A DNA stretch of 64,000 nt, taken from IMG/VR virus record IMGVR_UViG_3300025679_000005; one strand, 5' to 3'. Under the pieces are notes generated by a model, which made no database searches, had not been told where the DNA came from, and saw only the letters and a program-made list of their open reading frames with translations. Position numbers and translations under genes: made by a program. Of this stretch, positions 1,866 through 10,570 are shown one piece after another. Every line of letters begins with the position of its first letter. Positions within the stretch are counted from its first letter, which is position 1. The stretch is from a virus (Duplodnaviria > Caudoviricetes).

Positions 1866-2402
1866 TCATTGAGCGGCCTCATCACATCCAGTAGTTACAC
1901 CGGACTTTGCGAGCGCCTCGCCAGTCCGTCGACAAATCTCCTTCGAGGCTCCAAAATCCCGATCGTAAGTGCGCCCACAATTAGGACAAGCAAGGATCAG
2001 ACCGTCAAGCTTTCCAGTGGGTTTTATGCAATGGGGGCACACCTGCGACGTTTTGCGAGCGGATACCGCAAAAACCTTGGCACCCGACCGCTCGCAGATC
2101 TGTTTGAGCAGGTAGGGGGCAGAAACATCTCGGTTCTGACGTTTACGCCTAGAACTCTCCGAGGCCGTATCAAGAGCACGCATCTGTGTGCTCTTGAGGT
2201 CCTCTAGGCCGATAGCCACATACATGGCCGCCAGTTTTTTGGCGGCCTTACTGAGAATGTCCAAACGAATATTCTCAATCCGTCGGCGAGCCTTGGCGAT
2301 TTGTTTTTCGGTCAGGTGCTCGTAAGCCACCCAAGAGGCTTCCTCTGTAGTGAGTACTCCCAGTTCGGCCAGATGCCTTCGGTATTGATGCCGATTTCTC
2401 AC
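1866..2402 (-). CDS. 178-aa TnpB/Cas12f-like C-terminal fragment (bridge helix, RuvC-II, Zn finger, RuvC-III)
   Basis: RRRIENIRLDILSKAAKKL, IGLEDLK, TSQVCPHC, CPNCGRTYDRD; no RuvC-I, WED or REC region in frame. Confidence 0.8.
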   Translation of the reverse strand: MRNRHQYRRHLAELGVLTTEEASWVAYEHLTEKQIAKARRRIENIRLDILSKAAKKLAAMYVAIGLEDLKSTQMRALDTASESSRRKRQNRDVSAPYLLKQICERSGAKVFAVSARKTSQVCPHCIKPTGKLDGLILACPNCGRTYDRDFGASKEICRRTGEALAKSGVTTGCDEAAQ

Positions 2403-2423
2403 AGGAAGGTTGGCGTTTTTCTT

Positions 2424-2453
2424 GTCACAGTATTGGAACCCCTGAGCGGGTGT
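2424..2453 (-). repeat. solitary degenerate copy of array-A repeat 21 nt upstream of the RuvC-fragment start
   Basis: gtcacagtattggaacccctgagcgggtgt, 28/30 identical. Confidence 0.85.
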
Positions 2454-2498
2454 AGATCACATAATGTACGTTATCAAGCGTCCAGTCAACCCCATTGA

Positions 2499-2951
2499 TC
2501 ATGCCACGGCGCCACGTTTTTTATTGCGATTGCGCTCGGTCTTGCCAGTGACCTTGGTCACGGTCTTGCCGAAGTTGGCGTTCTTCTGCTCCTTCTCGAT
2601 GCGATTGTCGATGTCCGTGTCATGGCGCTGGGCCATGTCCGTGACGATCCACTCCTCGGCGTTCTCCAGGAGAGTGGAGATGATCAAGGCGAACGGGGTC
2701 TCCAGACCCACATGTACCATCGAGGTGCGGTCCTTGTTGGCCCGAATATGGGGAATGAACTTCTCGATCGGCGTCGGGGAGTTGCGGTCCGTGATGATGC
2801 GGCCGATGCGGAACGAGTACAGGACTTCGGAGCCGCGGGCGGGAGCCGTGCTGATTTCGACTGCGTAGCCCGACTTCTGCTCCTTACAGGTGTGGGTGAC
2901 ATTCCAGACTGGTTTGGCGTGGGTATTGGCTTGGTACGTGTTGTTGGTCAT
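2499..2951 (-). CDS. hypothetical protein with basic C-terminal tail
   Basis: ORF track; class-2 promoter-like motif upstream. Confidence 0.7.
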   Translation of the reverse strand: MTNNTYQANTHAKPVWNVTHTCKEQKSGYAVEISTAPARGSEVLYSFRIGRIITDRNSPTPIEKFIPHIRANKDRTSMVHVGLETPFALIISTLLENAEEWIVTDMAQRHDTDIDNRIEKEQKNANFGKTVTKVTGKTERNRNKKRGAVA

Positions 2952-7327: not shown

Positions 7328-7377
7328 GATGAACCTAACGGCAGGGGGCGGCGGGACTTAAGCCCCTGAGGTGGAGG

Positions 7378-8148
7378 GTCTCAGCGTACTGAGCAATCAA
7401 AAGGCTTCGCAGGCTGGGTCTGTCGCGAGCTGGACCAATACGGTGACGTGCTTGTCTCAGCGAACTGAGCAATCAAAAGGTTTCGCAGGATCCAGAGCTA
7501 CCAGGCGCTACAACGGAAGTGGCATCAGTCTCAGCGTACTGAGCAATCAAAAGGTTTCGCAGGAGGCGGTAGTCCTTGATGCTATCGTCGGCAAAGTCTC
7601 GTCTCAGCGTACTGAGCAATCAAAAGGTTTCGCAGGGTCGGGGCGGCGGGGGCAGATTCATCAGACCAAGTACGTCTCAGCGTACTGAGCAATCAAAAGG
7701 TTTCGCAGGAGTGGCCCATAGACCTGGTTCCCTTGGGCGTCCCTCTTGTCTCAGCGTACTGAGCAATCAAAAGGTTTCGCAGGGCCAGGGGCCGGCGGGC
7801 CGTTGTACTGGCCCGGACGAGTCTCAGCGTACTGAGCAATCAAAAGGTTTCGCAGGTTCCTTAGTGGGACTCTTAGAGGATCCTATAAGTAAGAGTCTCA
7901 GCGTACTGAGCAATCAAAAGGTTTCGCAGGGTCGGGTGTTGGAGTCGATGAGGTTGGCTTAGCGTACGTCTCAGCGTACTGAGCAATCAAAAGGTTTCGC
8001 AGGCCCCGACTCCACGGGATCATGTTGGGGATCGATCCTGTCTCAGCGTACTGAGCAATCAAAAGGTTTCGCAGGGCGTCGTGTTCATCGATCACAACTA
8101 CAGGGATCCCCTGTCTCAGCGTACTGAGCAATCAAAAGGTTTCGCAGG
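7378..8148 (-). CRISPR. CRISPR array B (CasPhi): 11 repeats of 36 nt (CCTGCGAAACCTTTTGATTGCTCAGTACGCTGAGAC on minus strand), 10 spacers of 36-40 nt
   Basis: Repeats start at 7378, 7454, 7528, 7601, 7674, 7748, 7821, 7895, 7968, 8040, 8113; the two variant repeats (7378, 7454) mark the trailer end. Confidence 0.99.
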
Positions 8149-8239
8149 TCGCACGTCAGAAACAGTGAATTTTCAAAGACCTACCGAATGCTTTGCGAGC
8201 GGTTCGGTAAATTAGAGATCAGCAGGGGGTATTACACCG

Positions 8240-10570
8240 TCATTCAGCGGCTTCAGCATCTTCTTCTGGCTTAAAAGCAGCTTTGCGAGCGCCTACGCTC
8301 TTTTTGGCATCACCGGACCGCTCGCTTTCTGGCTTAGGCATAGGCTTGCCGGTCAGAGCGACTCGTTCAATGTTGTCCGTCGCGATCTCAAGGTCAGCAT
8401 GAGCTACAAAGCCGCACTTCTGGCATGCGAACCGTTCTCCGTCCCGATTGGCCTTGTCACAGTGCCCACATTTGGTACAGGTGATGCTGGTCCGGTGGGG
8501 GGTTACTTCAATGGTTGGGACCCCCTTGTGGGCCCCCAATTCGGTCAAGGACTTGTGGAAGGCTTGCATGAACCAACGATTCTCCCTCTTCTTGATGAAG
8601 AAAGCGTCCCATCCGCCATCAGCCCATTTTCCGTTCCCATGCATCATCTTGATATTGAGGTCTTCGAAGGCCATAACGACGACCTCACATTGAGAGGATT
8701 TTGCTGCCTTGTGTCGCAATTGATTGAGAATGCGCTTCGTCAGTTCTTGTTTCCAGGTTGAGAGTCGGAGGTACTCGGGAGAAGTCCTCTGAAGGTCCCA
8801 TTGTGCCTCCCGATATGCTTCGGCAGCCTCCGGACTCACTTCTATTCGAACACCCTCAGTTCCCTTGAATTTGATGTCTCGTCGCAACATCTCGGGCCTA
8901 TTTTTGGGTTTGAGGGTAGCTACTTTCCGGTCGCCGCCCTTCTCAAGATAGGCCGTAGCAAGGAATTCTGTGTATGGAGTCATCTTGTCCCAAGCGATCA
9001 TCTCCGGATTGAGCCCTAGTGCGGCGCACACCCTAGCCTTACAGAGAGCTGGGGTGTCGTTTTTAGCCCTTAGGATCTCTGACTTATGCTCTGGAGATAG
9101 TCGCTCAACAGCCAAATTGGCCAACTTGTCCCGTAGACGATCACTGGCCACTCGATATCTAGCGATCTCTTTCCCATCGCTGCTGTCATTCGACAGTAGC
9201 TCTCGCAATAATGTCTCGTGGGATAGCTGGCCGTCGCTCAATTGGGTTACCCTAGAGACTTTGGCGGCAATAGGATTGGTTTGACCCAGGTCAATTGATA
9301 CTAGAACCACAGGCCCCGATTTTGTCAACTCGGACAGGATTTCAGGAGCGTTCTTTGTCTTCACCATTTTGGCAGAGCAAGCTTGACCCGCCTTGTAGAT
9401 AAAAGTGCAGACGCCCTGCCGCATGTCGATAGAGGGGTCCCCCGTGAACAGGCTTAGCAAGTCAGGGATCGTGGACTTTTCCTTCAGCAATTTCCGATAG
9501 CGAGCATTTCGCAGCAACCCTCGAATATCGATGATGACCCATTCGTCTTGGAAGCGCATCAATACAGGGATCGCACCTTTGAAGCGCCCCGATTGGATCT
9601 GATCTGTTCTCGAATTCTTCCGGTTTGGTGTTCCGGACCGTTTGGAGCACGTAGCCTTAGGCTTGTTAAGACTTGCCGAGTACCAATCTCGACGGCGCCT
9701 GTTCTTGCGACGATTGAGCAGAGGATGCTGCCACTCGGGCACATACCCCGGCTGTCCCTTTGGAATGGTCATGCGATCGTGAGGCAAGTAGTCCGTGAGG
9801 GCCTCAGCGGACTCTTTGGCAAGGCATCCGCTAGGTAACCCAATAAAGTCACTAGGGCAGGATTTGATCACTACTGCCTGATAGCCTGGAATCGTTTGGT
9901 TCACTCCCGGAGGATGAATCAAGTATCCTCGTTCATCATGGGCTTTCTCCTCCACGAAGGTAGCCTCTTCTCCTGCTTCCTTCCGGCGCTTCGTCTTCGA
10001 CAGATTCTTCTCGTTGCGGTTCTCAACCTTTTTGAGTACGCCCTCTCGAATGCTGATAGCCGATTTGATGAGGGCGTTCTGTGCCTGAGCGTGGAGGCTA
10101 GGGGCGTCCAGTCCCAACACTTCATAGAAGGCAGCTCGGGTTTCCTCATTGAGCTTGGATTTGCCATCAACTTCTAGGGAGGCTACCGCTTCGTTGAAGG
10201 CCGTCTCTGACAGACCATCTTGTTTGGGACGACCCTTGGTAGCGGGGATCCCGAAGATCTTCTCCTGGATTTGACGAGAAACTCGAACGAGGTCCCATTC
10301 GATAAAGGGCCTGCTTTGAGCAATTACGAAGGCTTTGGCGGGCGGTTTAACGTCCTTGAGCTTTGCCTGACCCTTGCCAGTCAGGTAGCTGATGACGGCT
10401 TCGGGTCCGCCATCTCTCAGCTTCTTGCCAGCAATCTTGTAATCCTGGGACTCAAATTTCAAGCCTGGGAAATGCGCCCGCAAAAGCAAAGACAATGGAG
10501 AAGGGGGTGTGGTTTTATTGCTCATGTGCTCTCTGGTCGAAACGGCCGTATTTGACATTTCTATTTGCAA
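8240..10570 (-). CDS. cas12j: CasPhi / Cas12j type V effector (start probably ATG 10558)
   Basis: About 770 aa; RuvC-I VSIDLGQTNP, RuvC-II AFEDLN, RuvC-III HADLEIA, Zn finger CTKC/CQKC; family-typical KGQPGYVPEWQ, DIRGLLRNAR, FTGDPSID, KRENRWF; adjacent array ending ATTGC..GAC. Confidence 0.95.
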   Translation of the reverse strand: MQIEMSNTAVSTREHMSNKTTPPSPLSLLLRAHFPGLKFESQDYKIAGKKLRDGGPEAVISYLTGKGQAKLKDVKPPAKAFVIAQSRPFIEWDLVRVSRQIQEKIFGIPATKGRPKQDGLSETAFNEAVASLEVDGKSKLNEETRAAFYEVLGLDAPSLHAQAQNALIKSAISIREGVLKKVENRNEKNLSKTKRRKEAGEEATFVEEKAHDERGYLIHPPGVNQTIPGYQAVVIKSCPSDFIGLPSGCLAKESAEALTDYLPHDRMTIPKGQPGYVPEWQHPLLNRRKNRRRRDWYSASLNKPKATCSKRSGTPNRKNSRTDQIQSGRFKGAIPVLMRFQDEWVIIDIRGLLRNARYRKLLKEKSTIPDLLSLFTGDPSIDMRQGVCTFIYKAGQACSAKMVKTKNAPEILSELTKSGPVVLVSIDLGQTNPIAAKVSRVTQLSDGQLSHETLLRELLSNDSSDGKEIARYRVASDRLRDKLANLAVERLSPEHKSEILRAKNDTPALCKARVCAALGLNPEMIAWDKMTPYTEFLATAYLEKGGDRKVATLKPKNRPEMLRRDIKFKGTEGVRIEVSPEAAEAYREAQWDLQRTSPEYLRLSTWKQELTKRILNQLRHKAAKSSQCEVVVMAFEDLNIKMMHGNGKWADGGWDAFFIKKRENRWFMQAFHKSLTELGAHKGVPTIEVTPHRTSITCTKCGHCDKANRDGERFACQKCGFVAHADLEIATDNIERVALTGKPMPKPESERSGDAKKSVGARKAAFKPEEDAEAAE

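Follow-up and report, generated by a model that had tools for sequence, protein, structure and literature searches.

A leader word at a fixed distance from the first repeat, conserved among CRISPR arrays of CasPhi-bearing huge phages

Leader motifs conserved at fixed distances from the repeats of CRISPR arrays are already a known kind of element. A strict distance to the leader–repeat junction, with a linker of free sequence, is the hallmark of motifs that Cas1–Cas2 and a bending protein read jointly. The E. coli type I-E leader has an integrase anchoring site (IAS) at −50 to −53, beyond the site for integration host factor (IHF) (PMC5224486). The type I-F leader holds two inverted-repeat motifs and two IHF sites that are folded by Cas1–2/3; spacing to the repeat decides integration, and the leader, not the repeat sequence, directs the integrase (bioRxiv 10.1101/2023.05.26.542337). 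The type II-A leader-anchoring sequence is a conserved leader word that abuts the first repeat (−1 to about −5) (PMC5382924), and boxA has been described in use with CRISPR arrays (PMC7862264). Here we describe a leader element in 64,000 nucleotides (nt) of Caudoviricetes DNA (IMG/VR record IMGVR_UViG_3300025679_000005; this whole stretch is called the window below), which carries a gene for CasPhi and CRISPR arrays A, B and C. The 11-mer CTTTGCGAGCG beside arrays A and B is the form taken in this phage by an oriented leader element that huge-phage CRISPR arrays conserve. The core begins with CTCG at −51 to −48, close to the position of the type I-E site; like the type II-A word it is tied to the first repeat, from which it stands 51 nt away instead of abutting it.

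Exact copies of the 11-mer start at window positions 1905, 8191 and 8281 of the plus strand, and a copy with one mismatch starts at 2051. Arrays A and B are both minus-sense: their repeats end ...GAGAC as CasPhi repeats do, degenerate or solo repeat copies are found towards lower coordinates, and B has casPhi immediately upstream. Because the arrays are read on the minus strand, the motif side is the leader side of both. The original prediction had placed the 11-mer at +43 from the leader-side repeat edge of each array, and so it lies (starts 1905 and 8191 for edges 1862 and 8148); read in array sense, the CTCG of the core starts exactly 51 nt before the first repeat in A and B alike. The features concerned are as follows, with matrix ranks from the scan described further on.

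1827–1862, minus strand: first (leader-proximal) repeat of array A; the whole array spans 1534–1862, with 5 repeats of 36 nt.
1905–1915, minus strand: leader motif of array A; sense CGCTCGCAAAG; core at 1907–1913; best matrix match in the window.
8113–8148, minus strand: first (leader-proximal) repeat of array B; the whole array spans 7378–8148, with 11 repeats of 36 nt.
8191–8201, minus strand: leader motif of array B; sense CGCTCGCAAAG; core CTCGCAA at 8193–8199; second-best matrix match in the window.

Three 11-mer copies in 64 kb are unremarkable alone; position, and conservation elsewhere, are what count. The flanks of A and B are dissimilar, as had been claimed, with 36 of 139 in-register positions identical outside the 11-mer, which is the random level, and an 11-mer in register is expected about 3e-5 times between two 150-nt flanks.

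CasPhi relatives (31–58% identity) were gathered from metagenome, viral and assembly collections and their leaders stacked on the first repeat; searches of viral_contigs with a single protein or with repeat B, and of the GenBank phage set with CasPhi, yielded none. The leaders of related arrays carry the motif: CTCG[C/A] occurs at −51 (13 arrays) or −52 (7 arrays) in 20 of 21 CasPhi-type arrays, and at the same distance in the nuclease-associated array of locus L130 and in type I-C-like arrays. The repeat-anchored alignment is nearly gap-free, with TCG invariant and C.CTCGC conserved to at least 90%. On the array sense strand the consensus of the element is (G)(A/G)ACC(G/T)CTCGCAA(T)CCGG(T)GTA, whose CTCG precedes the first repeat by 51–52 nt. 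Pairwise identity averages 0.84 for the core and 0.67 for the 14-nt block, falling to 0.39 in the stretch between block and repeat and 0.25 further upstream, with 0.69 for the nuclease-binding 3' half of the repeat; the core is as conserved as that half. The 44-nt linker from core to repeat is fixed in length and variable in sequence, and the bases adjoining the repeat are weakly conserved. Upstream of the core the region is rich in indels, unlike the constant distance of 51–52 between core and repeat.

Neither the hairpin around the B motif nor the 11-mer as such is conserved; C-C-(G/T)-CTCGCA-A plus a looser extension is. The closest relative, L003 (58% identity), has kept neither the 11-mer nor the taccgaa hairpin, and retains CTCTCGCC at −51 and the next block, GGTCTTTGAAAT. 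Within the linker, semi-conserved blocks recur, yTTTGAaA at about −32 and −16 and GAAATCAyTG from −27 to −18 (window 8163–8181, alignment columns 44–66); judged by their letters they may be boxA-like or half-IHF-site-like. The L003 array itself (7384–8895) is a mosaic of two repeat variants that differ in the 5' part and the hairpin loop, which suggests recombination between arrays.

The coding context of the element is set by the following neighbours.

1866–2402, minus strand: nuclease gene remnant beside array A; the 3' 178 codons of the gene for a 572-amino-acid TnpB-like type V nuclease.
8163–8181, minus strand: second, looser leader block of array B; sense GGTCTTTGAAAATTCACTG; near-identical in the closest relative, L003.
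8182–8209, minus strand: hairpin taccgaa/ttcggta around the B motif; phage-specific and not kept in relatives.
8240–10525, minus strand: casPhi (Cas12j) gene; 761 amino acids according to public assemblies.

The stop codon of the nuclease remnant lies 3 nt from array A, so the leader of that array consists entirely of the remnant. Its motif copy falls, as originally noted, within this truncated open reading frame (ORF; 178 codons), where it is read E-A-L-A-K, and its extension TCCGGTGTAAC (1894–1904) fits the family consensus. The leader of array B is made of the casPhi 3' end and a 91-nt intergenic stretch; its motif copy is non-coding, 39 nt past the casPhi stop codon, and does lie between the arms taccgaa (8182–8188) and ttcggta (8203–8209).

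Across the relatives the casPhi stop codon ranges from −135 to +2, and the distance between core and repeat is still 51–52. In 5 loci the core is read in the frame that gives Arg; 2 loci and window array A read it in a different frame, and in 12 loci it lies past the stop codon. Where it is translated by casPhi, the ORF extends to 0–41 nt from the repeat and the core is read ..(A/S/V)-R-(N/D/K)-P-..; the residue before Arg is variable (A/S/T/V), yet T is without exception the last letter of its codon, and for Arg the codon is CGC almost throughout. Since the core occurs in three reading frames or past a stop codon, the constraint acts on nucleotides, not on protein. CasPhi C-terminal tails vary greatly in length: the ORF crosses the leader motif in L017, L008, L012, L004 and L026, and in the window and eleven other loci the casPhi stop codon stands 58–135 nt before the repeat.

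Genome-wide, the motif is rare. The sequence CCNCTCGCAA occurs 8 times in a 529-kb relative, compared with 5 for the control. A 20-nt matrix trained on 14 loci from other sources only was used to scan whole genomes on both strands, and its top matches include the array leaders: the leader site ranks first in G005 and G002, leader sites take the top two ranks in G003 and, for arrays A and B, in the window, and the site ranks fifth in G001 and G004, the remaining high matches lying within long ORFs. The motif is neither a general promoter nor a frequent word. In the window, array C has no CTCG[CA] within 200 nt of either side, in line with the statement that it lacks the motif, and the solo and mini-array repeats are also without it. 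Solo or paired A- and B-type repeats outside arrays occur at window positions 6142, 7031, 10594, 10631, 14435, 14475, 61371, 932 and 2423; some of them bracket genes, including a tyrosine recombinase (6185–7024, minus strand), and at −51 the leader motif is missing from all of them.

It is with arrays that the motif goes, and not with casPhi. The array of G005 (complete, 362 kb) is placed upstream of casPhi and follows an unrelated ORF, and it carries CTCTCGCAAAG at −52 with a second copy at −134; this upstream placement (G005; L036, L021) differs from the downstream placement in other loci. The ORF beside array A corresponds to the last 178 codons of a 572-amino-acid TnpB-like nuclease (P0026, 71% identity). 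At L130, where that nuclease is intact, the array follows directly after the stop codon and CTCTCGCAAAC, read E-A-L-A-N, precedes the first repeat by 51 nt; both place and frame agree with window array A. The CasPhi phage G003 extends the comparison to type I-C-like arrays, whose 36-nt repeats end ATTGAAAC and which carry GTCTCGCAAACC at −51 and a second motif copy about 104 nt further up; one further array class in this genome has CTCTCGCAATCCGG at about −53. In G003 (61134–65600, 120196–121250 and 243555–244250) the type I-C-like arrays number at least three and have leaders, each about 200 nt long, that are duplicated; another 36-nt-repeat array stands beside a tRNA-like sequence. Cas5d gave no match in G001–G005, even though G003 has type I-C-like repeats, and a search of viral_contigs with the type I-C-like repeat end, with and without the motif, found arrays in G003 only, among the matches listed.

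The proposal of a shared cis-signal is strongly supported by this rarity and by leader conservation; the sequence does not settle between integration in trans and transcription. We tentatively prefer the first, at slightly less than even confidence: the motif would be an upstream anchoring site for a spacer-integration complex acting in trans. This reading builds on observed conservation, fixed spacing, nucleotide constraint, leader specificity, sharing between array classes, and related phages that lack Cas1 and Cas4. The element would act on DNA as the anchoring site, the complex being supplied in trans by the host or another element, and the complex would grip the anchoring site and the leader–repeat junction together across a bent 44-bp linker. 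On this proposal the linker is fixed in length and free in sequence because the complex holds both sites across it, and the recurrence of the same word at the same distance across CRISPR types with 36-nt repeats would likewise be accounted for. All motif-bearing arrays have 36-nt repeats and 35–40-nt spacers, which fit one ruler, as expected. Cas1 and Cas4 are absent from five related phage records, two of them complete, in which no match to PF01867 or PF01930 was found while control genomes were positive, and huge phages without Cas1 or Cas4 have been described before (Al-Shayeb 2020, PMC7162821). Because related phages are without either protein, the factor would act in trans. Binding by an integrase, bending of the linker and an origin of the integrase outside the phage are what we infer from this.

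The resemblance to the type I-E IAS covers a short conserved leader word, a fixed-length linker next to it, and preservation of the word among related arrays while the flanks drift. The differences are that the phages here do not encode Cas1–Cas2, that the sequence is another one and that the linker has no clear IHF consensus; moreover, the element here is often inside or just after an effector gene, and it is common to several CRISPR types. The type I-F leader is akin to this one in having several short motifs over about 150 bp, some of them inverted. Here, by contrast, there are two direct copies and one inverted box, and the distal pair stands at a variable distance from the repeat.

Several results weigh against such an anchor. 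The most divergent relative, L029, which is AT-rich, is the sole array of the 21 without the motif; a canonical promoter, TTGACT-16-TACAAT, is present there, its −10 box at the position that the motif takes in other loci. The motif is likewise missing from array C of the window, although its repeats are also 36 nt long. The search for a bacterial array with this leader found none, and in GTDB species genomes neither CasPhi nor the type I-C-like repeat gave a match. Arrays are identical among three assemblies of this phage, in which no spacer polymorphism or recent acquisition is visible. The linker lacks a clear IHF consensus; its block GAAATCAyTG (−27 to −18) resembles half of WATCAANNNNTTR, the fit not being full. 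A simple anchor does not account for the second copy, whose distance varies and which pairs with an inverted box, and sharing across types beyond the CasPhi family rests on few loci, G003 and L130.

The window does hold an HU/IHF-like gene between arrays A and B (3377–3673, plus strand; PF00216 in the public gene call). A link to such a gene was rejected as a general feature, the gene being present in one of five related phages and there far from the array.

A wider version of the anchoring-site reading is unlikely, in our estimation: one common address would mark all true arrays (those of CasPhi, of the 572-amino-acid TnpB-like nuclease and of the type I-C variant) in effector-bearing huge phages without Cas1 and Cas2, being inscribed even within the coding sequence of effector genes, and all would be served by a single spacer-loading machine that does not depend on the effector, be it a host integrase that the phage hijacks in trans or one encoded by the phage and so far unrecognised.

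The alternative that survives best is control of transcription, which we regard as possible, if rather unlikely. The element would then act in transcription of the precursor CRISPR RNA (pre-crRNA), as an activator or repressor site, as part of an unusual promoter, or as an antitermination signal of the boxA kind that lets RNA polymerase pass from casPhi or a leader promoter through the long untranslated array. The promoter of an array is normally found in its leader, every class shows the element in the orientation of its array, sharing between the array types of one phage would fit a common regulator, and in L029 the −10 box of the promoter occupies the motif's usual place. Promoter searches in the window speak against this: no pair of sigma-70 hexamers (16–18 nt spacing) occurs in the B leader (8050–8450), those in 1700–2500 lie only off the motif, and the information profile of the leaders shows no conserved −10 or −35 box at a fixed offset from the core. 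The phage has what looks, from its sequence, like a promoter of its own, TTAACTT-N10-GATCCGTTCTA, just before start codons at window positions 18853, 35581, 55216, 55985, 61426 and 61806; it is missing from leaders A and B.

The boxA consensus is GCTCTTTAACAA, and boxA antitermination elements upstream of CRISPR arrays are reportedly the subject of work by Stringer et al. in 2020. Use of boxA at arrays is known. Both are short oriented words in the leader of a long untranslated array, and the 11-mer starts with CGCTC, which is boxA-like. Inspection of the 11-mer against the consensus nonetheless gives no match, CGCTC alone agreeing, and the core CTCGCAA departs from the U-rich half of boxA. 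The second leader block, GGTCTTTGAAAA (GCTCTTTGACAT in relatives), resembles the consensus more closely, but is distinct from the motif. Neither a promoter nor boxA needs a fixed distance to the repeat, whereas the observed distance is kept within 1 nt over very deep divergence; the element has no use elsewhere in the genomes, and the mini-arrays of the window are without it.

A further alternative takes its evidence from upstream of the −51 copy, where three more features belong.

2051–2095, minus strand: array A upstream copy and partner; CCGCTCGCAAAA at 2051–2062 and GCGAGCGG at 2088–2095, with a 25-nt loop; encodes E-R-S-x8-A-R-K.
8281–8294, minus strand: upstream motif copy in casPhi; codons G-A-R-K; distance to the first repeat 141 nt; forms the 3' arm of an inverted repeat that is conserved.
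8313–8325, minus strand: inverted partner box; sense GCGAGCGGTCCGG; casPhi codons E-R-S-G; third-best matrix match, on the opposite strand.

The third copy that the original prediction reported within casPhi is real, with 14 nt identical to the array A copy, and the two are read in different frames. It is the window version of a second copy found at −128 to −165 in nearly all loci. The inverted box has complementarity to both copies: 7 bp with this upstream one, and 9 bp followed by a further 6 with the one at −51. Peptide E-R-S-x8-A-R-K and the GCGAGCGG/CCGCTCGC inverted repeat occur together in two places in the window, 2051–2095 and 8281–8325; one is the CasPhi tail and the other an unrelated fragment of the 572-amino-acid type of nuclease, ahead of its zinc finger.

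Read as letters, the second copy and the inverted box could form an RNA hairpin. The corresponding alternative, distinctly unlikely in our judgement, is an RNA-level element in which the E-R-S box pairs either with the upstream copy, as a hairpin with a 21-nt loop, or with the −51 copy, as a long-range helix, making a switch or processing signal that would separate or couple casPhi mRNA and pre-crRNA. The loop between inverted box and upstream copy is constant at 21 nt in 14 loci, a constancy also forced by the conserved peptide spacing. Two pairs of this helix show compensatory CG to AU double changes, and 77.7% of cells are paired, compared with 72.9% in shuffles (2 of 500 reach 77.7%) and 23–57% with the partner slid, a shuffle level that kinship among the sequences can exceed without any structure. 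Non-coding leaders, those of G005 and of the type I-C-like arrays in G003, contain the inverted partner as well. Support for pairing between the upstream copy and the E-R-S box is moderate, given the kinship of the sequences and a loop length that the peptide sets too. In the minimum-energy fold of the window region, 15 bp join the box to the −51 copy, yet this fold is not stabler than shuffles (z = −0.63), and the better-pairing copy for the box differs from locus to locus. A conserved RNA fold around the −51 copy was rejected: RNAalifold finds no consensus pairing for it, and no local partner scores better than in shuffled controls. Nor would an RNA role explain why the distance to the first repeat is fixed.

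That the motif has no function, its copies being chance matches or decaying remains of an ancestral nuclease coding tail (..A-R-N-P-V-Y-N-P..), is hardly credible: about two triples of exact copies of some 11-mer are expected in 64 kb (an estimate) and the motif is still translated in the casPhi frame in 5 loci, but the core persists in 12 contexts that are non-coding and in 3 that are read in other frames, the codon before Arg keeps its final T through changes of residue and Arg is almost always CGC, leaders that were never casPhi tails (G005, type I-C-like arrays, L130) carry the motif, and the A and B flanks agree at the random level. A degenerate leader-side 'repeat 0' was tried as well and rejected, as local alignment of each leader with its own repeat gave z < 3 in 21 of 21 loci, at inconsistent places.

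Two aspects of the element are new: it is common to arrays of different CRISPR types in phages without adaptation genes, and it is embedded in effector coding sequence in three frames while as conserved as the effector-binding half of the repeat. Full-text searches found no published leader motif for CasPhi or Biggiephage arrays; overlap with a canonical type I-C leader motif is possible, the main leader survey (Santiago-Frangos 2021) being uncompared. The description of the huge phages (Al-Shayeb 2020, PMC7162821) does not use the word 'leader', and since that description it has been an open question by what route spacers enter the arrays of CasPhi and other huge-phage systems in the absence of Cas1, Cas2 and Cas4.

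A strictly placed cis element that recurs across array types gives a handle on spacer gain in phages without adaptation genes of their own. The motif can serve as bait for a binding factor, as a search key for host arrays and integrases that share the leader, and as a site to mutate when acquisition or transcription is assayed. The finding also shows that casPhi 3' ends carry non-coding information, which matters for the annotation of their variable C-terminal tails and when native CasPhi loci are moved into other hosts.

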